Shown here piece after piece: positions 1,378 to 45,200 of a DNA stretch of 64,000 nt (positions are counted from its first letter, which is position 1; each line of letters opens with the position of its first letter). Under the pieces are notes generated by a model. It did not search any database. It was not told the origin of the DNA and saw only the letters and a list, made by a program, of their open reading frames with translations. Position numbers and translations under genes: made by a program. Source of the stretch: a virus; the IMG/VR virus record IMGVR_UViG_3300015371_000007, positions 30,547 to 94,546 of that record. One strand, given 5' to 3'.

Positions 1378-3110
1378 TGACCGATCCGTTCCTCGCTGAT
1401 CTTGTGCGGCGCAACGAAGACCTGCAGGCGGTGCTCGCCGAAGCGCGCGGCTGGAAGATCACGCGCTACTTCCACGACTGCCTCCCCGGCTGCGACCCGA
1501 CGTCGCTCGATCCCGCCGACCACCTCCCGCGCAAACCGGACCAAGGCCCGACCTGTCGCGTGCTCTACCGCAAGGCGGTGCGCTGGCTCCGAGCCGGCGC
1601 GGCGTATCCGGAGCGCGGCTTCATCGCGGCGAACCGCATCGGCAAGACCGACACCGCGGCGTACGAGATCACGTGTCATCTCACGGGCCGCTACCCGGCG
1701 TGGTGGGAAGGCAAGCGCTGGGACCGCCCGACGGATTGGCGCGCGGCCGGCGACACGATGCTCACCACGCGCGACATTCTGCAGAAGGCGCTGCTCGGGC
1801 CGCACGAAGGCGTGCCGGTGAACGAGTGGACCGGGATGATCCCTCCGCGGCTCGTGCTCGACGTCACGCGCAAGAGCGGCGGCATCACCAACTGCATCGA
1901 CACCGTGCACGTGCGCCACGTCTCGGGCGGGGTCTCGCGGTTGTCCTTCCTGTCGTACGACATGGGACGCCGCGTCTTCCAGGGCTTCGACTGCGACGGG
2001 TTCTGGATTGACGAGGAGCCGCCTGACCCCGCCGAGCGCTCCGAGGCGTTGGCCGCGGGCTCGACCGACATCTACGGCGAGTGCCTGCTCCGCACGATGA
2101 CGACCGACGGGATCGTGCTGGCGACGTTCACGCCGCTGCGCGGCTGGACCCCGTTCATGCGCGCCTACTTCGCGGCCGCGCTGATGCCGGGCACCGAAGA
2201 CGACGAGGTCGACGTGCCGGCGACCGCCGCGATGGCCTCGACGCCGGAAGGGCGCGCCGCGGAAGCGGACGAAGAGGGCTTCGCCGTCAAGTCCGACCGC
2301 GTCGCCCAGGTCGCCGAGGTCAATCCCTACGCGAACGTGCGGCCGCGGTTCATCATCGGCGCGACGTGGGATGACGCGCCGCACCTGACCGAGAAGGTCA
2401 AGGCGCAGCAGTGGGCGTCGATGCTGCCCTATCAGCGCGCGGCCCGCACCAAGGGCATTCCCCAGCTCGGGGCCGGCGCGGTCTATCCGATCGACGAGGC
2501 GGATCTGAAGGTCAGCGACTTCGTGATTCCCGACCATTGGTGGCGCGGCTTCGGGATGGACGTGGGCGGCGGCGCCAAAGCGACGGCCGCGGTGTTCTGC
2601 GCGCTCAACCCGGAAGACCGCGTGCTCTACGTGACCAGCGTCTACAAGCGCGCGAGCAATGAGCCGAGTCTCCACGCGGCCGCGATGAAAGAGCGGATGC
2701 TCCGGCCGACCGGCTGGTTGTGGCCGGGCGTCGGCGACGCGGCGGCGCTGATCATGACCGACCACGACGCCGAGCAGCTGGTCTACGTCTATCGGCGCTT
2801 GGGGCTCGACCTGCAGCTGCCCGACAAGGCGGTCGAGACGGGGATCGCGGATCTGTGGGACCTGATGGTCACCGGGCGCTTCAAGGTGCTGGCGTCGTGC
2901 CAGGCGTGGTTCGACGAGTTCCGGATGTACCGCCGCGACAGTCGCGGCCGCGTCGTCAAGAGCAACGACCACTTGATGGACGCCACGCGCTACGTCGCGC
3001 GCACCGGCATCTGGAAGATGAAACGCAAGCCGGCCAAGCCGACCGGCGAGGACAACAAGATTCTGCCGTTCGACCGCAACAGCGTGTCGCTCGGCTGGAT
3101 GGGCGGATGA
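1377..3110 (+). CDS. terL: terminase large subunit
   Basis: Walker A-like FIAANRIGKT, Walker B FQGFDCDGFWIDEEPP, coupling motif LATFTP, RNase H-like nuclease GMDVG...DHLMDATRY. Confidence 0.95.
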   Translation: MTDPFLADLVRRNEDLQAVLAEARGWKITRYFHDCLPGCDPTSLDPADHLPRKPDQGPTCRVLYRKAVRWLRAGAAYPERGFIAANRIGKTDTAAYEITCHLTGRYPAWWEGKRWDRPTDWRAAGDTMLTTRDILQKALLGPHEGVPVNEWTGMIPPRLVLDVTRKSGGITNCIDTVHVRHVSGGVSRLSFLSYDMGRRVFQGFDCDGFWIDEEPPDPAERSEALAAGSTDIYGECLLRTMTTDGIVLATFTPLRGWTPFMRAYFAAALMPGTEDDEVDVPATAAMASTPEGRAAEADEEGFAVKSDRVAQVAEVNPYANVRPRFIIGATWDDAPHLTEKVKAQQWASMLPYQRAARTKGIPQLGAGAVYPIDEADLKVSDFVIPDHWWRGFGMDVGGGAKATAAVFCALNPEDRVLYVTSVYKRASNEPSLHAAAMKERMLRPTGWLWPGVGDAAALIMTDHDAEQLVYVYRRLGLDLQLPDKAVETGIADLWDLMVTGRFKVLASCQAWFDEFRMYRRDSRGRVVKSNDHLMDATRYVARTGIWKMKRKPAKPTGEDNKILPFDRNSVSLGWMGG

Positions 3111-24275: not shown

Positions 24276-27200
24276 GTGCCGTCACTGCTGAACCTGGGCA
24301 CCTTCGGCCGGCTCGCGCAACTCTTTCAGCGCAAGAAGCCGCGCGACGCCTTTCTCGAGAATCTCGACGAGCAGTGGGGCAACGCGTGGGGCACGCAGCC
24401 CGATGCGTCGCCCCCCTCGCGCGATCCGTGGCTCGACCAGATCGCGTCGCAGTACCCCTTCGGCGCGTTCGACGAACCGGCCGCGCCCGCGCCCGCGCCG
24501 GAGCTGGCGATGCCGCAGCCGGCGCAGCCGGAGCCCGCCGACGATCTCGCCGCCCGCATCCGCGCCAGCCTCGGCCTCGGCGATACCGACGAGGACAACA
24601 GCCTGCTCGCGCAAGTCGAGAGCACGCTGCGGCGCCAGCCGTATGTGCAGCCGCCAGCGCTGCCGCCGGCAGCGTTGTCGCCGACGGGCGCGCCGCCCGC
24701 GTCACGGCCTCCGATCTCGCTAGCGCCGCCAGACATCGCGACGATTGGCGCGAACGTGTCGCCGCTGCCGCCGTGGCAGGCCGCGCGCCGGCCCGCGCAG
24801 GACGTGCACTTGCCGTCCGAGCCGCCGCCCGCGCCCCCGCCGCCGATTCCGAGCGGACCGGTCGACATGGCGACCGCGGGCGCGAATGTCTCGACGCTGC
24901 CGCCGTGGGCCGCAGCGCGTCCGCCCGCGCGCGATGTGCGCCTGCCGGCGCCTGGGGCGCCCCCCGCGCCCCCGCCCGCGCCGCCGATGGATGTGGCGAC
25001 GGTCGGCGCGAATGTGTCGCCGCTGCCGCCGTGGGAAGCCGCGCGGCGCGCTCGTGATCAACAGTTGCCGCCGACCGCCCCCGCCGAGGATCGGTTGACG
25101 ACGACGGAGACGATTCCGCAGCTCGCGACGCCGGAGGGCTACGCGCCGCCCCGGCAGGATGTGTTCAAGGAACGGCTCGCGAGGGTGGTTCAGCGGATGG
25201 CAGACGAAGGCTATCCCGTGAAGGTCACCAGCAAGACGCGCACGGCGGCGGAGCAAGCGAAGCTGTACCAGCAGGGCCGCGACGGCGCGCCTGGCAAGAT
25301 CGTGACATGGGCCGACGGGACGACCAAGATCTCCAAGCACCAGACCGGCACCGCCGCAGATCTCGCGTTCGTCGTCGACGGTCGCCCGTCTTGGGACGAC
25401 AAGTTGCCGTGGCCGCTGCTCGGGCGCATCGCGAAGGAAGAAGGACTGGTGTGGGGGGGCGACTGGTCTAAGCAGAAGAATGACCGCCCCCACGTCCAGC
25501 TGGAGGCCGAGGCCACGCAAGAGGGCCCGTACGCGGCGGCGAAGCCGCTGCCGCCGAAGCTCCACGGGGCACCGCCGCCGCCACCCGCGGCCCCGCTCCC
25601 CACGCCGCCGTCGCCCCCCGTGCCGGTCACCACCGCGGAGGCAAAGAAGGATCCGTTCGGCTTCGTCGATTTCATCAAGAGCCTCTACACGACCGACGGC
25701 GTCGGCATGGTGCCGATCGGCGGCACGCTGATTCCGGTACCGGGCCTGCCGCAAGTCACCGAGGCGGGCGCGGAGAAGCTACCGTGGGCCGGCGCCGCGT
25801 TCGCGGCGGCGGATGCCTACCAGCTCATTGCGGCGGCGCGCCGGCTCCGCGATGGGAAAGCGACGGCCGCGGACCAGGCGCTTATCGAACAGTACGCCGC
25901 CAAAGAACAGGAGATGGCCGAGCACGGCACCTCGTGGGGCTACAACGTCGCGCAGATCGTGACCGAGATGCCGGCGTTCATGATCGAGATGCTGTCGACC
26001 GAGGGTGTGTTCACCGGGGCGCGCACGGCCGGAAAGAAGGCGGCGCAAGAGGCGATCGGGAAGCTCCTCAAGGAGTCGGCCGCGGAAGTGATGGCGCGCC
26101 GTTCGACGCGATGGGCGACGAAGGTCGCCGAGACCGCGGTGGGCGCCGCCGCACAGGAAGCGGCGATGCCCACGCGCGTCGTCGCGAAGATGATGGACTA
26201 CGTCAAGCCGCCGCTCCATCCGTCGCTGAGTCCGGAGGACCAGCGCCACGTCGAGGCGGCGACGAAGGCGTACGAGACCATGCGCGGACAGCACGACCAC
26301 CTCACGGGCGTCTACGACACCGTCGCGGCGCAGCTCCAGCCGGCGCTCGACGAAATCGACACGATGAAGGCGCAAGTCGATGCCTTGCGCGCACACGTCA
26401 ACCCGAACAATCCGGTCAGCGTCGCCGGCTACAACGCCGCGCTGAACGCCCTGAACGCGCGCATCGCGCAAGTCCAGCCGCAGCTCGATCGCCTGAAGGC
26501 CGACAACGGCCAGATCGTCGATCTTGAGCGCCAGATGCGGACGCACTCGGCCGTGATGGACAAGGCCGACCAGAAGACGCTGCAGGACACGCTGAAGGAA
26601 TGGGACGACGATTTCCTCCCGGCGCTCTTCCGCGCCATCCCGGACCAGTTCATCGAGGTGTTCACCGAGCACGCGGGCGAAGCGATCGAACCGGTCGCGC
26701 AGTTGATCGGCGGCAAGCTCGCCAAGACCGCCGTCGGCAAGCAGGTCACCGCGCTGAAGACCGCGTTGCTGGACGACTGGCTGAAGCTCGCGCCGGGCAA
26801 CACCATCAGCAAGTGGGTGAAAGAGATCCGCCAGGGCGCGGGCTACAACGGCGTGCTCGGCGAGTACGGCGAAGAGCGGCTGGCCGACATCATGCGCGCG
26901 GCGATGCCGTTCACGCGGCAGGCGGGCGAGCCCAACGCCGCGATGATTCGCATGATCACCGGCGAGCCCACGCCGGGGGCGCCCGAGGGCGAGAGCCCTC
27001 GTCGCAGCGCGGCGAAGGAGTGGCTCTACCAGACCACGCAGGAGCTGGCCGCGTTCGCGATCCCCGATGTCATCACGCACGCGGCGGAGCATCTGCCCGC
27101 GCCGGGGCAAAAGCCACGCGCGTTCACCGTGCCGAAGGACGTCACGGCCGACGAACTGGTCGACCTCCGCCAGCGGCTGCAGGTCGCCCGGCAGAGCGTG

Positions 27201-30200
27201 CGGGCCGTCGACGACGTGAAGGAGTTGGACTCGCGGATCGCGAAGGTCGACACCGCGATCGCCGCCAAGATGCCGCCGTCGGCAGAGGGCCGACCTGTCC
27301 GCGAGCCGGCGCCGGCCGCTCCGTCAGGCTCCGAGGCGGCTCCGCCGACGGCGGCACTCCCCGACACCGTCGTCGAGACGCTCAAGAAGATGGGGCTCAC
27401 CGATCCCCACCTCGCGGACCTCACCTCGCTACAGGCCGCGTCGATCCTCAGTCACAGCGACCGCGGCGCGCTGCACGACCCGGAGGCTGCGGCGAACACC
27501 GATCCTGCGGCGCCGCGCACGCTGCGCAGCACCCCCGACTCGGTCGCGCACGCGGAGACGCTGGTTGAGACCTTGCGCGCGGGTGATCGCGTGACCGACA
27601 GCCGTGGGCGCGAATGGCATGTCACGCAACATCCAGTGGCCGGCGGCGGCACCGTCACGGGCCTGAGTGCGCGCGACGCGGATGGGCCGCAACCGGGCGC
27701 GGCGTTCCGCGATGCGTCCGGCGAGTGGCGCCACAACCCGGTCGTCACGGCGATCGTCGAGCGCGGGCGCATCACGCGCGGCCGCGCGATCCCACCGAAG
27801 GTCACCGGGTTCACCACGGCGAAGGGCAGCGTCTACACGGTCGCCGGCAGCGGCACGAGTCGGGCGAAGACGGCGACCGGCGAGAGCTTCGGGCCGTCGG
27901 ACCGCACGGTGTATCTCGACCCCAAGACCGCCGAACGCGCGCAGCTCCATCTCGACAACCACGACGAGGGCGAGACCACCGCGCGGCCACACATCCTGGC
28001 CGGTGGACGCATTGGCATCGTGGTCAAGAACCGCAAGACCGGCGAGGTGCGCAACGACCTGTCGCGCATCGTGCGCGGCTCGACGACGCCGGCCGTGGGT
28101 CTGCATCCCTTCGAGGTGTGGACGAAGGACGCGGAGGGTCGACGTCGCTGGCACTTCGGCAACGCGATCACGGAGGTGCAGACCGACGCGCCGACCGCGC
28201 CGGCCGAGAAGCCGACCGCGGTCTTCGCCTTCCACCAGCCCGACGAAAAGGGCGGTGCGCTGCCGATGTATCACGTGCAGGGCGGACCGCTCCATCGGTC
28301 GACGGTCTCCGCCGACACGCTGCGCGAGCACGGCATCGACGTGCCCGAGACGCCAAAGTTCGAGGGCCGCAAGCCGGCCACGCCGACGCCCGCCGATGCG
28401 CCACTCGGCGAATGGCAACCGATCGTCGGCCTTGAGGGGCATCGCGTCTACACGAGCGCAAAGGCGCGCTCGGTCGCTGGGCGAAACGTGGTGTACCTCC
28501 AGGCCGAGAGCAAGGATGGGAAGCGTCAGGCCTTCTATCTCGATGTTCACGGCAGCACGCGCAACGTCGACACGGTCGACGCGGTGGCGGGGGGCGATCC
28601 GTATGGGCCGAACGGCGAAGCCCCGGTGTGGAACGCCCCGACGATCGCGGCGGCAGAAGAAGTCGCGCGGCTGGTCCACTGGCAACGCGTCCATCTCACG
28701 GACGCGAGCGACGCCGAACTCGACGCGGTCTCGGCGCGGATAAAAGAGATCGTCGCGCGCACCGAGCCCGCCAAGACCGAGACGCCGAAGCCGGAAGACA
28801 AGCCCAAGACCGAAGCGAAGCCGACGAAGCCCACGTCGGAGATGAGCGACGCCGAGATCGCGCAGGCGATTCTGGACCGTCTCAAGGCCAAGGGCCAGAA
28901 GGTCGCGCCCACAACGGCCGCGCCCGAGACGTCACGCCGCGCGCCCGCCTCACGGCCCGCCGAGAGCCAGTCGACCGATCCGAAGGCGCAGGCCCGCGCC
29001 GAGCGGGCGCGGCTCATCGCCGAGTTGAAGAAGGAGCAGGCACAGGCGAAGGAGAAGGCCGACACGTCGTCGACGCCGTTGAAGCAAACGGACGAGGACG
29101 TCGAGACGCCGCTGTATCACGCAGAGGAAGAAGCCCCGTCGCCGAAAGCCGTCGAGCGCATGGTCGGCATCGTGCGCAGCTACCTGAACGAGGGCATCAC
29201 CGATTTCACCGCGGCGGCGCGCCAGTTCCAAGAGGACTACGGCGAGGACGCGCGCACGCTGGACGCGGCGCTGGAGCTGGGCTGGGAGATGCTCACGGGG
29301 CACACCGTGAGCGTGGCCGACGCCCTGGCTCCGCCGACGCAGGCTCCCGAACCACAGTGGCGCGACAACCTCCCCGAGGACGACGCCGAGACGATCGCGA
29401 ACGACCCGGTCGAGGTGTTGGAGGCGACGCTCCGCGAACAGGTCCAGCGCGGCAAGCGCCTGCGCGAGTGGGAAGCGAAACTCGTCGACAAGCAGGCGCA
29501 GATCGCGAAGCTCGAGAAAATCAAGAACCCGACCCGCAAGCAGCAGAAGACGCTCGTCAACAATCGGAAGAAGGTCGCCGAGGAATATCCGCGCCGCATC
29601 GCCGAGGCGAAGCTCGACATCGAAGAGACGTGGGAAGAGCTGGACCGGCTGATGACCGGGATCGACCTGGCCGACCTGCGCGCGCGCGTCGCGCGAAACC
29701 AGATCAAGCTGCGCACCCGGCGCACTTTCGCCGATGCGTACGAACAGCTCCTCAACGACCTGACGCCTGAAGCCCGCAAGAATGCCGAGCACCACTTCGG
29801 ACGGGCGACCGCCGGCCGCGACGTGCGCCACTTGCGCGTCGCGATGCAGATCTACGAGTTGCTGCTGGCGGACGATGGTCCCGAAGGCGGCGAGGCGGAG
29901 GCCAAGCGGCTGCTCGACGCGACCAACGCCTACTACGCCGACAAGAGCTATCTCGCCGAGACGCACGAGGGCCGCGAGACGGAGCACGACGCGTTCTACG
30001 CGGCGCTGCACGACGCCGCGGTGCTCGTCTCCGGCAAGGAAGATTTTGACCCGAACGATCTCGACGAATGGTCGGCGGGCGACTACGTCGACCCGAGCGA
30101 AGTCGGCACGCTGATTTTCCGCACGCTGGATCCGCAGACGGCGTCATTCGACGTCGATGAGTTCCATCGCGCGTATACCGACATTGAGTTCCGTCGCGAG

Positions 30201-33200
30201 CCGGACAGCACGTTCCCTCCGCCGGATACGTCGGTCAATCTGCTGCGCGCGAACGCGTCCGGGCCCATGCACACGAAGGCCGAGGGCGCGGCGCAGATCG
30301 AGCAGTGGAAAGCCGCCGCGCAGGAGGCTGGCCGCACACAGGACAACTCGCGGAAGATCATCCTCTCGCTGTACGACCGCACCGGCATCATCTCGAAGCC
30401 GTGGGAAGAGGCGGGCTACAGCGTGCGGCGCTTCGACATCTCGCCGAAAGCGGATGGCGGCACGGCCGAGGACCTGACGGAGTTCGGCAACTGGATGGCC
30501 GAGATCGAGGAAATGCTCGGCCAGGGCTATCAGATCGTCGGCGTGCTCGCGCAGCCGCCCTGCACGTCCTTCACCGACTCTGGCAATTCGCATTGGGACG
30601 CGCTCCATGACACCCCCAACGAGGAGTGGCTGACGCGCACCTACGGCGAAAAGGCGACCGAGTTCTTCGATCGGCCGATCGATTACGCGAACACGCTCGT
30701 GGCGGTGGTGAAGCTCGTGGTCGCGCAGGCGAACCCACGGTTCTACATGATGGAGAACCCGTTGGGGCGCATCGACCAGCAGAACCAGCTGCCGGAGCCG
30801 ACGCTGTCGTTCAACCCGTTCGACTTCGGCGAGCCGTTCTCGAAGAAGACGCAGATTTGGGGCGAGTTCAACCCGCAGCTGCCGACGTTCCGAGTGCCCG
30901 GCTCGAAGGAGGAAGGCGGACAAGGCAGTCGCACGTGGAATCTCTCCAGCGCGCGGAAGTACGAGCGCGAGATGACGCCCGAGGGATTCGCCTACGCGTT
31001 CTTCATGGCGAACCAGGCAGCGGCGCAGGAGGAGTGGGCCAACCAAGAGCGACCGCCCTACAGCGTGCCGCCGCCGGGCCAGAAGTACGACCCCACCAAC
31101 CCGGACCCCGATCTGATCACGACGCCGGCCGCGTTTGGTGACGAGGAGATGCCGGAGCTGACGCCTGAGCAAGCGGCAGCGCAGCGCGCCGAGGCGATCC
31201 GCAAGCTGAAGGAAGGTGCCGGCGCGCCGCCAGCGTCGCGGCCCGCTGAGAGCCTCCCGACGACGCCGGCCGACGACGGCCAGCGTTACGTCGTCTCCAG
31301 CAAGCGCGGGCCGACGCGCAAACTCGGCACCGGCGGGGTCTGGCAGGACACGCACTACGTCACCGGCGAGATCACGGCGACCGGTCCCGACTGGACCGAC
31401 AAGCGCGACGCGGCGCGGCCGCTGACGAAGGCCGAGGTCTATCAGATCGTGCAGGGCGCCGCCGAGCCGGAGGCGCTCAAGATCACGCACGCCGACGACG
31501 CGTCGAAGACGGTCACCATCGGCGAGGTGCAGGGCTACGTCGGCCAGGATGACGAGGACAACGCGATCTACGACCCCGACAAGGCGTGGGGCGCGCGACC
31601 CGCGCCCGCGTCGCAGCCGCCCCGGTCGCGGCCCGTCGAGAAGCCCACCGACGCGTACGACCGCGCCTTCGCCACCGCGCTGAAGCCCGACGATCCCCGA
31701 TGGGCGCCGCTGCGCGAGACCGGGGCGACGGAGTCACAGATCCTCGACGTGGTGCGCGAGGTGTTTCCCGAGGGCACGACGTCGTATCACACGCACCCGG
31801 ACACGGGCTGGGCCTTCGAGATCACGGGCGGCATGGTCCCGAGGGTCGTGGGCACCGCCGGCACCACAGGCGTCCGCGTCAGCGAAGTCGGGCGTCATCT
31901 CGCCGTCCAAGTCAGTCGCGCCCTCGACATCCCGTTGAACTACGAGGCGCGGCCGAAGGCGGAGCCGAAGGGGCCAGCGGTCCAGTTCACGCTCGACCAG
32001 CACCCGTTCACGGCGAAGGTCACGTTCAACCGGTCGGAGACCAACCCGCTCTATCGGGCGGTCATCACGCGCGAAGGCAAGCGCGTCCACGAGTATGAGA
32101 CCGTCGACCTCGACGACGCGGACACGTGGCTCACGCGCCAGCTCACGCAGACCGTGGAGGCGTTCAACGCGTCGCCGCGCGTCACCATCTCGCCGGCCGA
32201 CCACGAGACCGTCAAGACCTACCTGCAGGCGCTCGGCTACAACAACGTCACGCAGCACAAGGACGGCTCGCTCACGGTCCGCGCGACGGAGGGTCGGCAG
32301 CGGTTGGTGTTCCGCGCCACGCCCGGCACCGTCCGCCCCGATACGGGCGGGCCGAGCATCCGGCGCGACGTCGAGCGCCAGGCCGGCGCGCTGGTCGTGC
32401 GCGCGCACAACAAGACGCAGGCCTCGACCGCCGCCTTCAAACAGTTCGAGGCGGACCTGAAGCAGTTCGCCACCGGTCGGCCGTTGCCGTCGGCGTCGAT
32501 GGTCCGGAACGACTCGCGCGAGAAGGCGCAGCCCGGTGGCGTCATCGAGCTGCCGCCCACGCCGCCGCCGTCCCCTGACGCGACCCCGCAGCGCGACATC
32601 GCGTCGCTCCCGCGCGGCACCGCGCCGCCGTGGCAGATGACGCGCAAGGCGTTCCGCGACGATCGCCGCGCCTACACCGTGCCGAAGGGCAACATTTTCG
32701 CCTCCACGCCCGAGGACGTCATGTCCGGGGCCGCGCTGAAGGATCGCAGCCGGGACGAGTTGATCGCGTTCGCGCAGTACAGCGGCGTGCCGACGAAGGG
32801 CTCGAAGGAGAAGCTCGCCAACCGCATCCAGTCCGTGTGGCGCGTCCGGAGCTTCCTCGCGGGCCAGACGGTCCAGACCCTCTCGAAGTATCCGCAGAGC
32901 GATCTGAACCGGATGCACAAGCTGACGCATCGCGGGAAATCCGCGTCCTTCGCCGGCAAGGGCGGGCAGGCGATGTCGCTGCTCAAGTGGCTCGCGACGA
33001 TCCGGAAAAACGGCTTGGACATGATGGCGGACGCCATCCACGAGCTGCACGTCCGGAAAGCCCTGAAAGACGGGCTGGACGTCCCCGCCGAGGTGCTCAA
33101 GGACTACCCGGAACTGGCAAAGGAGGTCGCCGGTGGCGACATTGACAGCACGACAACGGGCGCGCCAGGATCGACTGGTGACCAACCGGCGTCCGGTGCC

Positions 33201-36200
33201 GCCCCGACAGGAGCTGCTGGCACAGGTCAAGGACCTGCTGCGGGCGGGCGTGCCCCACTGGACAGCGGCCCAAAGAGTCCTGCGGAAGTACGGTTTGCGG
33301 TACTTTCCCGATGGGCCGACGGCTTCTGGACCGACGACGTCCTCCCCAGCGCCCGCACCCACGGCTACGACGGCGACGACGCCACCCTCCGAGCCCTCTT
33401 CGACGGACGAGTAGCGTCCGCCCACGAATATCTCGAATCGGTGCGCCCGCTCGAAGCGGAGCACTCGGGCGATGCCTTCATCAAGGACGTCATCGCGCAC
33501 GGCGGCATCAACCTCTCGTACATGGGGCCGCGCCGCGTCGAGGAGTTCACCGTCGTCCAGCAGGCGCTGGCGGCGCAGGGCTACGTTGGTGTGCGGGCTC
33601 CCTTCCGCAAGAACGCCGGCATGTCGCTCGACGACATGCTCGTGGCGCTGAAGCCGAAGTGGCCGGACCTGACCGACGACTGGTCCGTCATCAACAAGCT
33701 CGAACGCATCGGCAGCGGCGAGGAGCCGGCGTCGTGGGGCACCGATAACTTCGCCACGGCGATCCGCGGCGCGGGCGTGGTGCTCGACGAACCGTGGTGG
33801 CAGGACTTCGACGGGACGACGGAGTTCACGCCCGATGCGTTCGAGGGCACGACCGCCGGGCGCCTCTTCCGTGAGCGCGCGGAGAACGCGGCTGACACGG
33901 GCATCCCCACCTACGCGGAGATGCTCGGCGAGATGGCCGACCGCGCCGACCAAGGCTTGCCGGTGTGGGACAACACGCGCGGCGCCGCGCTGGCGCTGCG
34001 CCATCTGGAGAACACCGAGTGGGTGTGGTGGCCGGCGCACACCGACAAGCCCGTGGCGCTCATCCGTCTGACCGAGAACAACGACGCGCAGGGCGACGGG
34101 CGCTACTACAAGGCGAAGATTCTGGAGCAGCTCGCCGGCTGGGGCACCGAGCCCGTGATGGAGAGCATCGGCCATCCGGATGCGCGCTTCGCCGACGGGA
34201 CGATTTCGGTCAGCTTCCCCAACAGCTGGGGCTATCTCCGCGCCGTTGATGCGCTGACCCCAGGCGCCGTCGGGGACGCGGCCAGTCCCGAGCAGACCAT
34301 GTCGTCCGCGGATCTCGCCGATCTCATCCGCGACGAGCTGGTGGAGGAAGGCAAGACCGGGAAGGACTCCCCGCTCCCCGAGCAGACCGCGTTCATGGTC
34401 GGGCCGAAGTCGCACGTCGATCACGACGTGACGCCCGCGCACCTCGCGTTTGCGCAGCAGCACTTCGCCGGCCGCACGGCGTTCTTCGCCGAAACCGTCA
34501 CGCTCCCTGACGATCTGCCGGCGCTGCCGTCGGCGCTCTATGGGCCGATCGCCGGCGATCCGCCGGTGCCGGATGCGGACGTGTTCCAGGCGAAGCGCGG
34601 CGATCGGGCGTGGGACTCGCGCCTCATCGACCGGCCGTCGCGCCCGAGCCGCAAGCTCACCGTCATTGCCGGCCCGAATGCGGACGGGCAGATGGTGCTC
34701 TACACCGCGTTCGGCGGCGAGCTGGCGCCGCAGGAACCCGGTGACCCCGGCGCGCGCGACAAGGCAGCATCCGAGCAGTTCTGGTCCGAGCACGCGCTGA
34801 GCGCTCCGGCGTTCAACGTCACGCCGCCCGAGCCGGAAGGCGAGCCGCGTGCGCCGTGGCAAATGACGCCCGAGGAATGGGCCGCGCACGAAGCGAAGGC
34901 GTTCGGCGACGCGCCGAAGCCCGTGACCGATCGGACCCGCGGCTGGCATCGCGGCCAGGTGCTCGATGCGGTGAAGGCCGGCAAGCCGGTTCCCGCGCGC
35001 GTGCTGGCGCTCTATCCCGAGGCGGCGCCGGACGCCGCGCCGGATGTCATCACCTTCCGCTCCGGCAACCAGACGTCGCCGACCGACATCGCCGGCTACA
35101 TCCGCGCCGGCAAGGCCGTGGGCGTGGTCGCGTTCGCCAATCCCAAGGTGCGGGCGCAGGCGGTCGAGTACGCGCAGCACGGCGGACCGGTGTTCGTCGA
35201 CTCCGGCGCGTTCGGCCACACGGTCGTCGAGAACGGCGTCGCGCGCTCCACGCTCGATTTCGACGCGGTGCTCGACTACTACATCGAGCTACTGGTCGAC
35301 ATCGGCGAGGCGCACGCCGGCAACGTGTGGGTCGTCGCGCCCGACGTCGCGCCTGCGATGGTCGACGGGCAGATGCGGACCTTCCCGCAAGAGACGCGCG
35401 ATCTCCAGAAGCAGTATCGCGCGCGCGTCCAGGCGCTGATCGACACGGGCGCCAACGTCATCGCCCCGGTGCAGGTCGACGAGTCGCGCTTCGTGGCCGA
35501 CGTGATCGACACCGTCGCCGACTTCCCCGGCGCGCAGCTCGGCTTGCCGGGCAACAAGGGCGCGGTGCCCGTCGACGTGCTGGCCGAAGCGATGGCGGCG
35601 CTGACCACGACGCACCTCGGCGAGGATTTCCGCGGCGTGCATTTCTTGGGCGTCGGCGATGTCGGGACCGCGAAGGCGAAGCTCCAGTACTACGTCGACA
35701 CGGTGCGCGCGGACTTCCCTGACGCGCTCATCACGTCGGATGCCACGCGCACCACGGCGATGATCGGCGAGGGCCGCGTCCTCACGGAAGGCGCGCGCAA
35801 GCAGCTCCGGATGCTCGGCGGCTTTGCCGCAGACGAAGAGGTGGTCGACTACGACCTCGACAGTGGCGTGGCCGGACAGTTCTTCCGCGGCGAGTGGGAC
35901 AAGTTCACGCCGCAGGAGCTGCAGCGCGTGTTCGACGCCGCCGGCCTCACCCGCGAGGCGGCGGAGCAGCTCCGCGCCGAGGGGCGCATCAACGAGATCT
36001 TCGACTGGAAGGGCTACCAGCAGTGGATGCGGGACAAGATCGAAACGCCCGCGGACCAAGAGCTGCCTGAGCCGCCGAACCCGGCGTTCGTGACGCCCGA
36101 GACGGATCCGTCCGTCTACCCGCCCGTCGTCGACACGCTCATGGACATCGTGAGCGACCGCGAAACGGCGAAGCCCACGACGCGCCTGCAAGCGCGCGAA

Positions 36201-39200
36201 GACGCCATCGCGCATATCGAGATGGACGCGCAGACGCCCGAGGAACGGGCCCGCGGCGACGCGATCCGCAAGCTGAAGGAGACGCAAGCCGCAGCGGCGC
36301 CGGCCGTCGACGTGCTCGACACGGGCGAGCAGCAGCCGCGCCTGCCCGGCGACGTCGGCGAGGTGCGGACGCAGGAGACGGCGACGCCGGAGTTCGACGC
36401 GCCGTTCTCGCTCACGTCCGAGATCGGCAAGACGAAGCCGCAGAAGCCGGACACGCTCTTCCAAGATCCGGACGAGGAGCGGATTCCGACCGCGACCGAA
36501 ATCAAGCTGATGGTCGACATCGTCGACTCGTACCCGAAGACGATGCCGTTCGAGGAGGCGGTGCGATCCTTCGCGGCCGAGTTCGGCGACGGGTTCGCCG
36601 GCAAGCTGCACACGGCGTTCGAGAAGGCGTGGAAGTTCCGGCGCCGCGAGGTCAAGAAGGTCGAGGACGTGTTGTCGGCGCGCAAGCCGGCGCCGCCCAA
36701 GAAGGAGGAGGAACCGGCGCCGCCGCCGCGCCCGCCGCAGCCGCCACCGCCGCCCGCGCCGCCGCCGTCGCTGCCGCCCGGATTGGCGGCACTGGCGGAC
36801 CGGCCGCTCGGCGTCGGGCAGAAGCACCGCACCACGCTGGTGAAGGATCTGTTCAGCAAGGATCCGGGGTACGTCGATTGGCTGGTGGGGCTGGACCGGC
36901 CGTCCGAGCTGTTCAAGCAGGTTCGGGAGTACTATACGAAGTACCGGCCCGACTACCTGAAGTACGTGCGGGACCGGGAGGCGGCGACGAAGGAGCCGGC
37001 GCCTGAGACGCCGCCGGCACCACCGGTCGATCCCGCGTCCGTGCTGACGCCGGACAACCTCGCCGTGCTGCGGCGCGCTGGGGTGACCGCGGAGGCCGGG
37101 CCAGACGGCACGATTCTGCTGAAGGGGCGCACGTATGCCTACAAAGACCTCATCCGATCAGCCGGAGGACGCTCAGCTCCTAGAGGAGATGATGGCCGCT
37201 TCACGGGATGGCTCATACCAGCCAACCGCCTGGCCGAACTCGTTGGTCGACTCGGAGACCGCCGTAGCAATGGTCAAGGATCCGGCCAACGCCGAGCCAG
37301 TTATGAAAGCCATCCAGAGCTTGCAGATCTCCGACGACGAGCTGACGAATGGCCTGACGCCAGCGACCTGCCAGGCGATCGTGCATCAGTTCTCTCGCCG
37401 GGTACTGCAGCCGTCATCACCAAAGGCGGGCTCGCCATCGGCATCCCGCAGTTCGTCCTCGACGAACAAATCGAAGACGTAGCGCGGATTTCGCACGCCT
37501 ATCAAAAGCAGCTGCCGGCCTTCATCCTCGCGTCCGAACCGGGGTCGGGCAAGACCTTCGTGCTCGGCGGCGCCATGCGCGAGCTGCGCCGGCAGGGCGC
37601 CAAGAAGATCGTCTACGTCACGCTGAACAACGACCTCGTCAGCCAGATCCGCAACGACCTCGCGGCGTTTGCGATCGGCGACGTGCAGTTCATTACCTAC
37701 GACAAGCTCCGCAAGACGGAGCCGTTCGCGGTCGACGCGATCATTTTCGACGAAGCGCAGAAGATCAAGAACGTCGAGGAAGGCGGCTCGGCCGTCGCCA
37801 TCGCGGCGCAGGGCTGGGTCGACGAGGCGAAGTTCACCATCTACGCGTCGGCGACGCCGGCCGAGAACCCCGTGCAGATGGAATACATCGCGACGACGGG
37901 CTTGCTGAAGCCGCTCGTGGGCGATGAGTTCTGGAAGTTCGCCGCCGCGTTCGGAGCGACCCCGCTCCGGCGCAAGGACGGCGCCGGCAACATCTACTAC
38001 GACATCGAATGGCGCCGCACGCTCACCAGCGATGCGGACGCCGCCGCCGCGCGCGAGTGGCTGCGGAAGCAGGGCGTCTACACGTCGCGGCGCATCCGGC
38101 TCCCTGATGGGCAGGTCGATTCGCGCAACGTCAAGATCGACGTCCCCGAGGTGCACGAGCGGCGCTACACGCAGATCTCGCAAGCCGTCGCGGCGATGGG
38201 GCCGGACGGCAACGCGAAGATGTGGGTGATCAACTTCCAGAAGCGCCTGCTCGAAGCCGCCAAGGTCCAGCAGGCGATCACGGAAGCCCGCAGCGCGCTC
38301 GACCGTGGCCGGTTCCCGATCATCTTCGTGGAGACGAAGGCGGAACGGCGCATCGACATCCCGGACCTCATGCAGCGCGAGCGCGACTATGCGCTCGCCG
38401 TCGGCATGGCGAAAGCGATGGGCGACAGTAAGCCCCGCCGCAAGGAGTTCGGCCTGCCGCCGGCCGGCGTGACCGAAGTGCTTGAGCACTACATGAACGC
38501 CAGCGGCGAGTCGGTGATCGAGATCCCGCCGGCCGTCGATGAGGTGCGCAAGGCGCTCGGCGCCGAGAACGTCGCCGAGTACACCGGCGACGTCAGCGGC
38601 AAGCAAGCGGCCGCGAACCTGGCCGAGTGGCGCGCGGGCGGACGCAAGGTGCTCGTCGCCACGATGGCGAAGGGCGGCACCGGGCTGTCGCTGCACGACA
38701 AGGTCGGCGACCATCAGACGACGCAGATCAACATCAACATGCCGTGGACGGCGACCTCGCTCGTGCAGGTCGCCCAGCGGTCGGCGCGGTATGGCTTGAA
38801 GGGCCGCGCCGAGATCATGTGGCTCTTCGCGCACAACATCCCGTTCGACCGCGCCCTGGCCCGTCGCGTCGGCGGACGAATGGCGGACCTCGGCGCGATC
38901 GTGCACGGCGAAGCGCTGCCGGGATCCGAGCAGATCGAAAATTGGGACTTCGAGGACGAATCGTTCGCCGACGAAGAAGTCAAGCGCGTCACGGCCGAGA
39001 TGAACCGGGAGGCGGGGAACGTCGCGCTCGAACAGGGCGAGGTGCCCGACGACATCGCGCGCGAGGCGGAGCCCGCGCGGTGGACCGGCGAGAACATCGC
39101 GTCGATCCTCAACATCCCGCGCGACCAGGGCGACGCCATCGCGGCGCTGACGCAGTTCGCGGGACTGGACCTCCCGTCGTTCCCCGGCATCCTGCTCGTC

Positions 39201-42200
39201 AAGGGCGGCATTCCCGGATCGGGCGCGCTGACGCACCAGCTCACGGTCGATCGGGTACGGACACGGTTCCGCCGCGCGCCGCTCGTGTCGGTCAACGATG
39301 CCGTGCGCGCGCTCGGCGGCGGCGTGCCGGGCTACCTCGACGCCGTCGCGGACTTCCTGCGCACACAGCGGGAGAAGGTCGTCAACGGCGAGTTGACCAC
39401 GCGCGACGTCGCCAAGGCCTACCTGCTCACGCTCGGCAGCATCGGCGCCGGCCCGATCAATCTCGACACCTTCGTCAAGTCGACCGGTCTCGTGCCGTCG
39501 GCCGACTTCGTGACCGTGGAGCGCGGCGTCGCCAAGGTGCGGCCCGAGGAAGCGGTCGCGCTCTGGATGTTCACGCCGGCCGGCCAGCGCGCGCTCGATG
39601 CGCTGGAGGGGGGCCACGTCCGCCAGCGCGATTTCGCCGGCTTGATGCGCGTGCGCGATGCCTACGGGCGCAATGACATCCGCAACAACGGCTTCCGCCG
39701 CAGCACGACGGGCCTGCGATCGCTCTACGACATCAAGACGCTGACCGACGAGCTGAACGCTGCGCGCGGCGCGTCGGGGCCGATGGGCGAGATCGTCCGC
39801 TCGATGATGGGGATCTCGCACGGCAAGGAAGGGTTCATCAAGCATCTGCTCGGCATCGGCGATACGCCGACGGTCGACTCGGTCGCGATCAATTTCTGGC
39901 TGACGGGCCAGGGCGATATCCGCGACGTGCAGACGCCCGCGGCGCAACTGGCGCGCGACGTCAAGACCGTGCTGCTGCCGAAGGACTACGCCCGCGCCGA
40001 GCTGGCCGATCGGATTCAGCAGCAAGTGCAGGCGGTCGCGACGCGGCTGGGCATGGACCCGGAGACCGCCGGCCATCTGCTGCATCACTGGCTGTGGGAC
40101 AAGGCGCGCGGCACCGAGACGTCGCACGCCGGCATGATGCGCGCGATGGCGATGGCGCAGGAGGAGCAGGCGGGGCTCAAGCTGTCGGTGCTCCACAACC
40201 TGCACGTCGACAACCTGGGGTACGTCGACCAGCTGGGAGGCCTGCCGGTGCCGTCGCTCGGCATCGTCAGCGAGGGCGGCACACTCTCCGGCATGGGTAA
40301 CATCACGCTCATCGGCCGGCGCGCGCTGGCCGACCCCGAGCGCGACCCGGTGTTCGACGCCGACGCCTACACGCAGACGTTCCCGCGTGCGGCGTATCCG
40401 AAGGCGAAGACCGGTCCGGCGCAACGCGTGCTCGACCGGTTCAAGCCGTTCGCCACAAAGTTCGATGACAAGCACGTCGAATACCTGCTGTGGGACAACG
40501 CCGTCAACACGCCCAACCCGCACGACACCATCAGTCGCCTCCTGCGGAGCGAAGCCGGCAAGGCCTGGTATCTCAGCGAGGTGATGGGCAAGACGATCGA
40601 ACCGACCATGAAGCCGCGCGAACTGCGCGCCCCGTGGGTCGCCGACCCGACGTTTGTAGCCGAGGCGCCCGAGCTGATGCGGCAGATTGACGCGCTCGCC
40701 CCGAGCGAGCGGACGGGCGACAGCGCGCCGGCACGGGCGTTCGCCGCCCTCGCGCGTGGCGCGATCGATCGCTATCTGGAGACGCCGGAAGGCGCCAAGT
40801 GGGTCAAGGTCAACAAGACCCGCGAAGCGGCGCGGGCGTTCGTCGCCCGTGGCTGGGGCGACGGCGGCGAGTGGATGGCCGACGAGAGCCAGACGATCCC
40901 GTGGGGGACGATGTCGCGCCTCGTCGACAGCGTGCGGCAGGACGTCGGGAAGGAGCGCGTCGACGGCGAGAAGACGCGCGCGGAACTGGACGCCGCGCTG
41001 AAGGGCAAGGAGGCCGAGTTCAAGGCGTGGATCGAGCAACAGGTGCTCGGCCTGCACGGCGAGCCCTACATCACGATCGGGCGCCGCCGCGTGCCGATCA
41101 CGCTCAGCAACCTCGTGGACGCGATGCGCGCGGGCGCCAAGGTGAACAGCGTGCAGAGCACGCTGGTGTTCGGCGAGGGGAAGGCGCGCGCGTCGGCGGC
41201 GCACCAGATCACCAGCACCGCGGAGCTGCGCAACCGCGCCGCGTGGCAGCTCGGCACCGAGGAGTCCATCAAGGCCGCGCGCGAGACGGCCAAGAAGGCG
41301 CTGGAAGAGTGGCGCAACGATGTCGTCCGCTACTACGGTGAGCGGACGGGGCGTGGCGAGTTCGGCCAGACGTGGGAAGGCCTCGACGCGTCGATGCGCG
41401 CACTGGCGCGCTGGGCGTCGACCAAGGGCCGCACGGCGCAGACGCTGCGCAGCGCCCTGTGGCGGGAAGGCTTCCGCAACGTGCCGGGCGGCGCCATCGC
41501 AGACGGAGTCAAGGCCGGGCGGCTCTTCATGGAAGCGCCGGTCCCCTACTTCGAGGCGAAGCCGCAGCGCGCCGTGCGCCTGTCGGAGTTTGCCGGCGCC
41601 GTCATCCCGTCGACCGCGCCCGCGGAGACGCGCGCGATCCTCGACAAGCACGGCGTGCCCTACCGCGAGTACGACGCCGCGCAGGAGAAGGGCCAGCAGG
41701 AAGCCACGATCGCCTTCCGCGACGAGCTGGCGCGCCAGGGCGAGGACGTGCTCTTCCAGCGGAATGAGCAGACGGAGTCGGCCGCGTTCCAGCGCTGGTT
41801 CGGGAACAGCGAGGTCGTCGACGCGGCCGGTGACCCACTGGTCGTCTACCACGGGACGGGCGGGCCGGCGATCGCGGCGTTCGAGGGTGGGCGCGTCAAC
41901 ACCCGCGGCATCTACTTCACGGCGAGCCCGCACCTGGCCGATGCGTATGCCAGCCGTCCCTCGCGAGGGGGGCGACAGGCGATCTATCCGGTCTACCTTC
42001 GTATCGAGAACCCGTTCGTGGTCGAGCGGCAGACGCCCGACCAAGTGCGCGCCGACCGCGCGGGCGCCACCGAGCGCCGCCAGTTCTCCATGTCCCTGTC
42101 CGCGGCGCAGATTGCGGATCTCAAGGCGCAGGGCTACGACGGCATCATCAATCACGACGCGAAGGAATACGTCGTCTTCGATCCGGCGCAGATCAAGAGC

Positions 42201-45200
42201 GCGATCGGCAACCGCGGCACGTTCGATCCGTCCGATCCGAACATCCTCTACCAGGGCGACGACGAGAAAGCGCCGACGCTCGACGAGCTGACCGCGCAGA
42301 TCGCGACGCTGCAGCAGCGGCTCGACCTCTACTACGAGAAGCGGGCGCCGCAGGCGGTCATCGACCGCGCCGAAGGCCAGCTCGCGGCGCTGGAAGATCG
42401 CGCCGAGGGGCTGAGCGAGGCGCTCGGCGAATACGACCGCGACAACGAGGACGAAGTCGGCGCCGTGTCGCTCGAACAGGACTTCGCGGGCATCTACGAC
42501 CGCTACTTCATCAATCCGCCGGCCCACGTGCGCGCGCAGTCGGAAGAGGAGATTCGGACCGATGCGCTCGCGGCGCTCCGCGGCGCGCTCATCAGTGCGA
42601 GCTTCATCGGCACCAACGAGCCGATGCGGGCCGTCGACCACGTCACCGACGAGATGGTGCTCGCGGCCGCGGAGGACGCGTACTGGCATCAGATCCACCT
42701 TCGCCAGCGGCTGCGGATCCGGCAGGCGAATGGCGGCGATGCGATGAGCCCGGCGCTGCAGGCGTATCTCGCCGAGCACTCGGAGCCGTTGTATGAGAGC
42801 GCCTGGCACGGCTCGCCGCACATCTTCGAGAAGTTCTCGCTGCATCACGTCGGCACCGGCGAGGGGGCGCAGACGTTCGGCTGGGGCCTCTACTTCGCCG
42901 GCAAGCGCGAGGTCGCCGAAGGCTACCGACACCGGCTCGCGGGGCCGGCCCCGCAAACGCCACACCTTGCGCTGCGTGGCGAGCCCGTGTTCCGCCCGAA
43001 TGGGACGCTCAGCTTCCAGACCAGCCAGATCACGACGCGCGGCGCAGAGCGGGTGACGGTCCAGACGAATCCGATCACGGCGCGTGAGCATCGCGGCTGG
43101 AAGGAATTGGAGTGGTGGGCGGGGTCGCTCGCGCATTACGGCCACACGCCAGCCACGGGGCCAGAGGCCGTGGCGGTGATCCGGCAACAGCTCGAAGCGA
43201 CCGAACGCGAGTATCTCGCCGCGGTGCACGAAAACAGCACCATCAGCGGGGACGCGTACGAGGACGCGGATCGCCTTGCCAACGTGGATGCCGCCATCGA
43301 TCTCCTCGACCAGCACCAGGCGGAGCTGGACGTGGTGCTGCCGGCGCAGCCGGGACGGCTCTACAAGGTCGAGATCCCCGAAGACGAGGACTTCCTCGAT
43401 TGGGACAAGACCGCGTCGCAGCAGAGCCAGAAGGTGCAGACGGCGCTGCGGGCGCTCGGGATCGAATGGGAGCCCGTGAAGCCGTGGTCGCCGAAGCGCT
43501 TCCTCGCGTGGTCGCACACGGGCGCCTTCGATCGGCTGTGGCGCGAGGACATCGGGATCCGCGAATCGCTGGCGGCGGGCGTCCATGCCGCCAACTCCGG
43601 CAGTCGCGAGGCGTTCGATCGGTGGTATAGCCAGCATCAGGGGCTCATGCCGAAGGGCATGATCGACCCCACGGGCGCGACCCTCTACGGCGATCTGCAG
43701 AACCAGCTCTATCGGGAGAAGGGCTACGCCTCGACGCCGGGATCCCCGATGTATAAGCACGCGGCGCGGCTGGCGTCGGAGGCGCTGGCGGCGCAGGGCA
43801 TCGCGGGGATTCGCTACCTCGACGGCGCGTCGCGGAGCAAGGGCGAGGGCACGAGCAACTTCGTGGTCTTCGACGACAAGCTCGTCAACATCGTCGAGAT
43901 GTATCAAGAGGAGCAGCGGCGCGCGAAGGCGTCGGTCGAGTTCCTCGACACGGGCGAAGCGTTGGTGCGAGCGCTCACAAACCCCGACGTCTCCAGCGGC
44001 GTGCACGAGCTGGCGCACATCGCGCGTCGATGGCTCTTCGACCTCAGCGTGCCGGCCGAGCAGCGCGCAGGTATCAGCGACGACGACATTCGCACGGCGG
44101 CGAAGTGGGCGGGCGCGCGCATCGGGCCGGACGGCGCCATCCAGTGGCGGTGGACGCGGCGCGACGACCAGGGCCGCGTCATGCGCGACGCGGAGGGCCG
44201 GCTCATCATCGACGTCCGCGCGGAAGAGAAGTTCGCGCGCGGGTTCGAGCGCTATCTCTACGAGGGGAAAGCGCCGATCCCCGAGCTGGAAGCGCTCTTC
44301 CAGAAGTTTGCGGCGTGGCTGCGCGACATCTACCACCGGCTGCTCGGTTCGCCGATTGACGTCGAGATCTCGCCCGCGATGTGGGAGGTCTACGACCACC
44401 TCGTGACGCGCATGGCGACGCGCACCGACGCGACTGCTGACCGTGCCTCGCCGGCCGACACCGAGCCGCTCGACGCGCTCTTCCAACTCGAGCCCGATGA
44501 CCCGCCGCCGACGGGCTTTTGGGCGAAGCGTCGCGCGGCGCGCGAAGAGCGGAACGCGCCGCCGCTGATTACCTCACTCGATCCGGCCGTTGAGGAACGG
44601 CTGCGCGCCGCGCGCGGGCATCCCGTGACGCCGTGGCTCGCCGGCATGAAGGAGAAGCTGGGGGTCCTGCCGAAGCTGACGCGCCACTTCCCTGAGATTA
44701 GTCCGTCGCGATCGGCGCCCGAGGCGACCGCGCACGAGCTGCTACTGGAGCAGGAACGCGCCTCGAAGTTCGGCCAGGTCGTCGCCTACAACCGGATCTC
44801 GGATCTGCTCGCGCCGATGACGCTGCGCGAAGTGGACGTGTTCACGCGCGCGCTGATTCTGCCCGACATCCTCAAGGACGTTGAGGACGGGCTCTACGAG
44901 GGCAAGGAGCTGCCGTTCGGCTTCGCGGACGCAGACGCGGTGGAGGCCGACCTCGCGCGCGTCAACGCCGTCGTTGCCGAGCACCCGAAGATCCGCACCG
45001 CGCTGGACAAGCGCGCGGCGTTCGTAAAGCGGCTGACGCAGGACCTTGTCACGGCGAAGCTGCTCAAGCGCGAGGTGCTCGACGACGACCGCTACTACCA
45101 CCGGCAGGTCATGGCGCACCTCGGCCAGTCGCCCTACGGTCTCGGCGTCGCCAACGGCAAGCAGCTGCGGGCGCGGCGGCGCGGCTTCCAAGTCGCGCGC

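Follow-up and report, generated by a model that had tools for sequence, protein, structure and literature searches.

A conserved gene predicted in the +1 frame of a giant polyvalent-protein gene of a phage, across the start of a Snf2-like ATPase module

The locus and its two reading frames

The stretch of DNA analyzed here (the window) comprises 64,000 nucleotides of the IMG/VR virus record IMGVR_UViG_3300015371_000007, a record of 94,546 bases with an estimated completeness of about 93%. It carries a giant open reading frame (ORF), 24276..47747, whose frame is called the main frame below, and a small ORF, 37135..37482, which lies inside the giant one on the same strand in the +1 frame and is the subject of this study (the nested gene). 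About 190 bases of the overlap (37218-37404) encode two conserved proteins, the start of an ATPase module of the giant protein and the predicted helical core of a small acidic +1 protein. Pfam matched the product of the giant ORF to Peptidase_M15_4, LPD14, PBECR5, ART-PolyVal and AAA_34/ResIII/Helicase_C, the LPD14 match being slightly below the Pfam cut-off. Because M15 peptidase, LPD14, PBECR5, ART-PolyVal and superfamily 2 (SF2) helicase domains were found in it, the domain content identifies the product as a large polyvalent protein of the phage or conjugative-element kind. This protein is probably ejected from the phage. The features of the locus are listed in Table 1.

Table 1. Features of the giant gene and of the nested gene in the window; pLDDT, predicted local distance difference test; AF2, AlphaFold2
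Feature	Coordinates	Strand	Frame	Description and basis
Host gene	24276..47747	+	main	7,823 aa ORF, 23.5 kb; ORF list and Pfam
Small alpha/beta domain	37044..37268	+	main	module residues 1-75; pLDDT 81-88
Shine-Dalgarno-like AAGGGG	37122..37127	+		7 nt spacer to ATG 37135
Nested gene	37135..37482	+	+1	115 aa plus TAG (37480-37482); codon usage, related metagenome ORFs
N-terminal part of nested protein	37135..37217	+	+1	residues 1-28; pLDDT < 50; overlaps main-frame motif TY.YKD.I..GG
Dual-coding core	37218..37404	+	both	nested residues ~29-90; purifying selection in both frames
Helices of nested protein	37252-37404	+	+1	residues 40-90; four helices, AF2 pLDDT ~78 (13 sequences)
Disordered linker	37263..37289	+	main	module residues 74-82; sole stretch with pLDDT < 50
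Snf2/Swi2-like ATPase module	37299..38930	+	main	AF2, Foldseek, Pfam
C-terminal tail of nested ORF	37405..37479	+	+1	Ser-rich, unconserved; pLDDT ~46-55, parts < 50
Main predicted docking surface	37770..38018	+	main	module residues 243-325; beta-hairpin insert, after DEAQ and SAT

A first-pass annotation, made from the letters alone, had proposed an overprinted gene immediately upstream of the helicase domain, with AAGGGG preceding its ATG and codon bias moving to the +1 frame. The AAGGGG is present, one base away from the position first given, and a +1-frame TGA (37120-37122) lies 4 codons upstream of ATG 37135. The main-frame G+C content at third codon positions (GC3) of the giant ORF was 0.899 +/- 0.072 in 150-nt windows and dropped to 0.40-0.56 over 37116-37475, the deepest dip within the ORF; the local G+C was 0.61 vs 0.69 for the giant gene. 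Codon-usage log-likelihoods trained on the rest of the giant ORF were compared between frames in 1,557 windows of 40 codons each. The value for the +1 frame minus that for the main frame averaged -55.7 +/- 18.3 and was positive at two places only, 33111-33350 and 37131-37445, reaching up to +35 at the latter. The 92 codons of 37134-37409 contain 7 of the 36 GGA and 6 of the 27 CGA codons of the giant gene, together with its sole AGA. The codon-bias shift at 37131-37445 is real and well outside chance. The switch to the +1 frame thus held, as did its distinctness from other parts of the gene, the shift being unique to two sites of the giant ORF; coordinate arithmetic also agreed with the remark that the nested ORF uses the same relative frame (+1) as an ORF at 33133.

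Relatives of the locus were taken from viral contigs (L002-L007, L024, L025), metagenomes (L011-L016) and genome or metagenome-assembled genome (MAG) contigs (L026-L031). The main-frame protein aligned without frame breaks across the whole stretch in all of them (tblastn and alignments), with the conserved motifs TY.YKD.I..GG...W.I and LR.LR..AD.RPD.S. AlphaFold2 modelling of the module 37044-38930 (629 aa, 12-sequence alignment) gave a mean pLDDT of 82.6. The model begins with the small alpha/beta domain, which had no Pfam matches even at E <= 10, and continues into a two-lobed ATPase entered by confident helices beginning at module residue 86. These N-terminal ATPase helices, which carry the motif LR.LR..AD.RPD.S, share their coding bases with the predicted helices of the nested protein. 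Foldseek searches of the PDB with the module retrieved ISWI, Chd1, Mot1, RapA and ZorD (E 1e-13 to 1e-10), and the Walker A (GSGKT), DEAQ and SAT motifs were invariant across the helicase-module alignment (A5). Sequence and predicted structure together identify the main-frame module as a Snf2/Swi2-like SF2 ATPase with two RecA-like lobes. The main frame over about 37140-37410 is indeed R/G/D-rich, as first described, but it does not resemble an off-frame reading, being conserved in homologues and predicted to be folded. Likewise, the overlap, taken at first for an inter-domain linker, is not a featureless one, its main frame being conserved, under purifying selection and mostly predicted to be folded.

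The window and the L002 family become homologous exactly at the alpha/beta domain, after Pro/Ala-rich linkers, so this domain forms the 5' edge of a mobile module. The sequence upstream is unrelated; the window and the L002 family both carry the nested ORF, which travels with the helicase module, as had been suggested early on. A tblastn search of GenBank phages and PLSDB plasmids with the module gave distant helicase-core matches only.

Two long ORFs lie antisense to the giant gene, one of 2,366 aa (37386..44486, - strand) covering its helicase region and the other of 1,161 aa (31734..35219), as is typical where third positions are as G+C-rich as in the giant gene. The end of the former coincides with the dual-coding stretch of lowered GC3.

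Selection on the two frames and recurrence in relatives

Selection was estimated with a self-written, overlap-aware dN/dS count modelled on OLGenie, in which sites are classed by their effect in both frames (dNN, changes altering both; dNS, altering the main frame and silent in the +1 frame; dSN, silent in the main frame and altering the +1 frame) and ratios are bootstrapped over codons. In the L002 family (7 sequences) the share of identical-residue codons that differ fell from 0.3-0.5 in the flanks to 0-0.07 at 37218-37400, and in the core columns position 1 of the main-frame codon was more variable than position 3. Position 1 of the main-frame codon is the wobble position of the +1 frame. 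The +1 dNN/dNS of the core was 0.46 between the window and L011 (bootstrap P of a ratio >= 1, 0.008), 0.00 between L024 and L031 (P 0.004), 0.32 in the L002 family (P 0/500) and 0.53 between L026 and L027 (P 0/500), and the helicase control region gave 0.83-0.90 in all comparisons, not significant. These substitution patterns indicate that the +1 core is under purifying selection in 4 of 5 independent comparisons. The main frame of the core was constrained as well, with dNN/dSN below 1 (0.42-0.70, and 0 in L024-L031; P 0.002-0.054).

The dSN was 0.077 in the core vs 0.499 in the helicase for the L002 family, and 0.091 vs 0.381 for L024-L031; that is, changes silent in the main frame that alter the +1 frame were 4-6 times slower in the core. 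Changes silent only in the +1 frame were more frequent in the core than in the helicase, so the suppressed dSN of the core is not due to low diversity. Core identities in the +1 and main frames were 0.61 vs 0.59, 0.93 vs 0.89 and 0.49 vs 0.46, respectively. The +1 identity equalled that of the main frame in the core only; the helicase control and the pairs that include L029 gave far lower values. A consistent +1 constraint was not found in the N-terminal 28 or the last 25 codons of the window's ORF; over 37135..37217 the +1 dNN/dNS was 0.61-1.57, not significant, and the main frame there was constrained.

The GC3 dip at the same site, together with an open +1 frame, was found in relatives spanning 42-71% G+C, including L007 (42% G+C). 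The open frame measured 85-138 codons, and more than 200 in L006 and L024. Interruption of this frame by stops in close homologues had been named as an outcome that would speak against the gene; the frame was open in close and distant homologues. The codon-usage switch to the +1 frame occurred at the same site in 11 of the 13 loci tested, each with its own codon table (L011, L002, L004, L005, L007, L024, L026, L027, L028, L030 and L031). In these relatives the +1-favouring windows start 120-280 nt into the module, and elsewhere in the switch-positive loci (about 2,000 codons each) the +1 frame almost never beat the main frame. An exception was seen in a partly masked stretch of L031. L025, where codon bias is weak, had no switch. 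In L011 the +1 frame was also favoured at 2311-2450 and 2746-2780, where a low-complexity linker rich in Pro and Ala precedes the module; the signal there is probably a composition artefact, a warning that repeats can mislead the codon-usage scan.

L029 (PSRM01000068.1, a Verrucomicrobia MAG) differs from the other relatives. Its locus 2501-3100 keeps the main-frame module and the motif LRELRETTDKRPDLS without a GC3 dip, and its +1 reading is Trp/Cys/Arg-rich, junk-like and unrelated to the peptide family (core identity 0.08-0.19). L029 is a natural case without the nested gene, through loss or through never having had one. Since it keeps the main-frame motif without the +1 signals, these signals are not forced by the main-frame protein. 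Conversely, L030 (NZ_JAOQNG010000005.1:391902-397714), from the isolate genome of Azospirillum canadense DS2, showed a GC3 dip (0.50 vs 0.93), an open +1 frame of 117 codons and GGAGGA-N7-ATG.

These results support the proposal of an overprinted gene upstream of the helicase in three respects, namely +1 codon usage, conservation in homologues and purifying selection, and the +1 ORF 37135..37482 is very probably a genuine coding gene under selection.

At the other site of the giant ORF, the ORF 33133..33414 (+ strand, +1 frame), +1 codon usage was ahead by up to +30 over 33111-33350. Here the main frame encodes a linker rich in Gly, Ala, Pro and Thr, and the +1 reading resembles a basic helical protein. 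The main-frame stretch was not found in the records of four relatives, and no relatives of the +1 peptide were found in viral contigs. The idea that nested genes are a recurring design of the polyvalent protein therefore gains one further site, by codon usage only.

Start sites, product and predicted partner

The start column of the nested ORF is shared, with ATG in the window, L027, L026 and many database ORFs, and with GTG in L011, where the main-frame Tyr is changed to Arg. In the window the duplex of the Shine-Dalgarno (SD) site with the anti-SD had -7.1 kcal/mol, and anti-SD pairing upstream of candidate starts ranked within the top 0.6-5.5% of in-gene positions for the window, L011, L026, L025, L030 and L007. 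Several SD-start pairs are built from rare main-frame codons: GGG-AGG (AGG, 2.6% of Arg codons) and CGT in L011, TGG-AGG (2.8%) and GAT (18.8% of Asp codons) in L028, and GGA-GGA (12% of Gly codons) and GAT (11%) in L030. Further pairs were GGAGG-N7-ATG in L003 and L005, GGAGG-N7-TTG in L004, AAGGAG-N7-ATG in L025 and GGAGG-N8-ATG in L026; the pair of L028 is likewise of the GGAGG-N7 type. No promoter-like or terminator-like site was found in 36600-37700, and the RNA structure around the nested start was not unusual (z +1.1). Initiation of its own, and not frameshifting, is rather probable for the nested gene.

The predicted product is acidic and of about 12 kDa, and its predicted helical segment coincides with the dual-constraint core. 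The C-terminal tail of the window's ORF exists because the first +1 stop is the TAG inside the main-frame motif EDVA; in the other aligned clades the nested ORF stops about 20-25 codons earlier. P0003, a 149-aa close relative of the window's peptide from JGI metagenome contigs of 1.0-1.7 kb, lacks a stop inside EDVA and is extended by about 35 Arg/Ser/Gly-rich residues, which agrees with an unconstrained tail.

The core of the +1 family reads approximately LL.D.EV..Q.T..IL.S.N.E.LLT..PT.ADL..LL, followed by an S-V-K/R-I/V-L-like end. A profile of 13 +1 peptides searched against 1.84 billion representative proteins gave 18 matches, 15 of which were ORFs of 74-149 aa with the family motifs, one of them, of 115 aa, closely related to the window's ORF. 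Most of these ORFs came from contigs of less than 2 kb, in which the giant ORF is truncated and gene callers take the nested frame; P0009, P0013 (MCS6803820.1) and P0016 came from long contigs. The N-terminus that these ORFs share, M.TKTSS, results from reading the main-frame motif TY.YKD.I in the +1 frame, and the database ORFs were therefore taken as nested copies. No free-standing copy of the family was present among the profile-search matches. No relatives of the +1 peptides of the window, P0009 and P0016 were found in viral contigs. The nested peptide had no matches in Pfam or PHROGs, its predicted structure none in the PDB or BFVD at E <= 0.001 (Foldseek), and a search of the ESM Atlas gave no usable matches; its best VIA Z-score, 3.5 to SAP domains, was within noise.

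The first-pass annotation had suggested modelling the peptide with the neighbouring helicase. Complex prediction with the main-frame module (629 aa, 12-row alignment) and peptide residues 28-95 (13-row alignment) scored 0.00, 0.66 and 0.75 in three runs (median 0.66), and the best of 3 controls scored 0.00, so that the pair passed its controls. Of 80 solved complexes 58 reached the mark used for this score, as did 2 of 110 mismatched pairs; these counts are a rough guide, since the present prediction was made with alignments of our own. The partner pLDDT was 51 or more, and between-run contact agreement at least 0%. The predicted interface involves module residues 243-256, 271-284, 296-325, 386-397 and 465-473, and the tightest pairs join peptide residues 85-91, the conserved C-terminal motif, to the conserved strand 318-324 of the module. 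The interface is distant from the overlap and so cannot be a consequence of shared nucleotides. The model supports binding of the peptide to the ATPase and does not show it.

We propose that ribosomes would start internally on a long late mRNA at the SD-like site and ATG 37135, other lineages using equivalent SD-start pairs. The product would be a free protein with a disordered N-terminus, a helical core and the conserved C-terminal S-V-K/R-I/V-L-like motif. It may act as a detachable subunit of the Snf2-like ATPase encoded just downstream, docked on lobe 1 and the insertion. Its most likely role would be that of a brake or of a partner in folding and packaging, and its proportion to the giant protein would be fixed by synthesis of both from one mRNA. 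Taken as a whole, a nested gene with its own start whose product docks on the Snf2-like ATPase is the explanation that we favour, with moderate confidence. Docking and regulation form its weakest step. From the model, the chances that the nested protein binds the helicase module are about even, and its action as an inhibitor or gate, proposed by analogy, is a tentative suggestion.

Alternative explanations and known systems

Several observations weigh against this explanation. The core of L028-L030 gave a +1 dNN/dNS of 1.61, which was not significant and came from a gap-rich linker alignment. The chance of an open +1 frame, given the main-frame protein and gene-wide codon use, was 0.002-0.58 per lineage in a shuffle test; this test is low-powered in G+C-rich genomes and was treated as weak, its support being modest per lineage and the test having been picked after the fact. 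The SD of the window itself is only moderate (top 5.5%), start positions vary among clades, and a convincing SD-start pair was not found in L002, L012, L006, L024 and L031. The peptide is without a known fold or family, so that its role is drawn from the docking model and linkage alone, a score of 0.00 came from one complex run in three, and the confidence of a model is not a measurement.

Some of these points would also fit a +1 (or -2) frameshift upstream of the core, which would yield a truncated polyvalent protein without the helicase, ending in the +1 peptide. The differing start positions, the clades without a credible SD-start pair, the confinement of +1 selection to the C-terminal two thirds of the ORF and a +1 frame that, in the L002, L006 and L024 lineages, remains open from well ahead of the core all agree with it. 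On the other hand, no shared slippery or hungry-codon motif was seen by eye in the alignments, with no formal motif scan made; L011 does not conserve the single AGA of the window (CCT-AGA); a +1 stop lies just 4 codons upstream of the conserved ATG or GTG in the window, L011 and L027; and SD-start pairs built from rare codons occur in at least 8 lineages. We consider frameshifting very unlikely. The other rival that accepts a +1 protein is a real nested gene with a product unrelated to the helicase, such as an acidic anti-defence protein acting as an independent small effector. Many phage counter-defence proteins are likewise small, acidic and without a family, an overlapping gene is necessarily linked to the helicase, so that linkage gives no evidence of shared function, and a complex run at 0.00 suits an unrelated product. 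The complex model nevertheless beat its controls (0.66 vs 0.00), with an interface formed by the conserved C-terminal motif of the peptide and a conserved strand of the ATPase insert, and the profile search found the family only nested, never free-standing. An independent effector is thus unlikely in our estimation.

A constraint on the nucleic acid without any +1 protein, such as a rare-codon pause at the domain border, an RNA structure or a DNA site, would account for the rare-codon cluster at a domain boundary of a very long protein and for the conserved synonymous sites. It does not agree with the acceptance of +1-silent changes 2-3 times more often than +1-altering ones, with main-frame position 1 varying more than position 3, with +1 codon usage that matches that of the genome, or with a conserved +1 peptide family that has a predicted fold; the start-region RNA structure was not unusual and neither promoter nor terminator was found. 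A rare-codon pause or RNA element alone was rejected because the substitutions show +1-frame periodicity, and this class of explanation is highly improbable. The local G+C of 0.61 vs 0.69 for the gene might also suggest an artefact, that is, compensating frameshifts, assembly errors or a recent foreign patch of lower G+C. The unbroken main-frame alignment in relatives rules this out, and the feature recurs in independent viral, metagenome and genome assemblies of 42-71% G+C, leaving such an origin next to no probability.

The proposed nested gene with its own start has a well-known counterpart in phage lambda, where the whole of Rz1 lies within Rz, in its +1 frame, and the lysis proteins that the two encode bind each other. 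As in Rz/Rz1, the same-strand gene of the window lies fully inside a larger gene of a tailed double-stranded DNA (dsDNA) phage, in the +1 frame and with a probable start of its own; binding of its product to that of the host gene is proposed, here by modelling only. Unlike Rz/Rz1, to which it has no sequence or functional relation, the nested gene has a gene for a 7,823-aa polyvalent protein as its host, and the predicted partner of its product is an ATPase domain encoded after the overlap. A parallel for the proposed function is the auto-inhibition of Snf2 remodellers, in which small acidic or helical elements on the ATPase lobes, such as AutoN and NegC of ISWI and the chromodomains of Chd1, gate activity. 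The nested product resembles them as a small acidic helical protein predicted on a structurally Snf2-like module. These elements belong to the same polypeptide as the ATPase, whereas the nested product is a separate protein from another frame with no detected similarity to them in sequence or fold, and gating is proposed from the likeness.

For the origin of the overlap, the spacer of the hepatitis B polymerase over the S gene is comparable; a modular origin was proposed for it from sliding-window codon usage, genome-like usage being taken as the mark of the older frame (PMC8227390, section 8 for hepatitis B). In both cases the small gene has genome-like codon usage and shares its bases with the connector of a long multi-domain protein; the virus type differs and the proteins are unrelated, so the likeness is an analogy of origin only. 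By the same criterion the +1 frame would be the older in the core, because its codon usage is genome-like. The small gene could then be the older partner, a free-standing helicase regulator swallowed when neighbours fused into a polyvalent protein, with the connector of the fusion and the first ATPase helices read across it in another frame. If so, giant phage proteins would absorb small genes without killing them, and the survivor would gate an injected motor in trans. This reading of the small gene as the older partner is quite unlikely, and against it stand the equalisation of codon usage that long joint evolution can bring and the co-distribution of both frames except in L029.

The host gene itself, with its LPD14, ART-PolyVal, PBECR5, M15 peptidase and SF2 helicase domains, is like other large polyvalent proteins of phages and conjugative elements, and our literature search found no description of genes nested inside such proteins. 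Same-strand nested genes are already well known as a kind. What is new is this gene family, its location inside a polyvalent ejection-type protein of a large phage, and its deep conservation with both frames constrained, largely predicted to be folded, and with a predicted contact to the adjacent domain. Gene callers miss same-strand genes nested in a longer ORF, and the family is seen publicly only where contigs cut the giant ORF. A local jump of codon bias to another frame offers a cheap signature for their detection in G+C-rich genomes, and it flags the 33133 site too. Polyvalent ejection proteins gain a candidate trans-acting subunit for a Snf2-like motor, and A. canadense DS2, as an isolate carrier, offers a cultivable test system for the nested gene.

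Overprinted genes are familiar from phiX174 (A/B/K and D/E) and many RNA viruses, and the +1 overlap is the commonest arrangement of internal overlaps (PMC8227390). The nested gene shares with them its dual coding, its internal +1 position and a small product without homologues in family databases. Overlaps in small viruses are usually put down to genome compression, whereas the present one sits in a 94.5-kb phage, within a gene of 23.5 kb. Compression is improbable as the cause in a large dsDNA phage, and the overlap suggests coupled expression or a function in common. The locus further differs from the phiX174 and RNA-virus cases in that both frames of its core are predicted to be folded and evolve at similar rates, and in that the nested frame, not the host frame, has genome-like codon usage.

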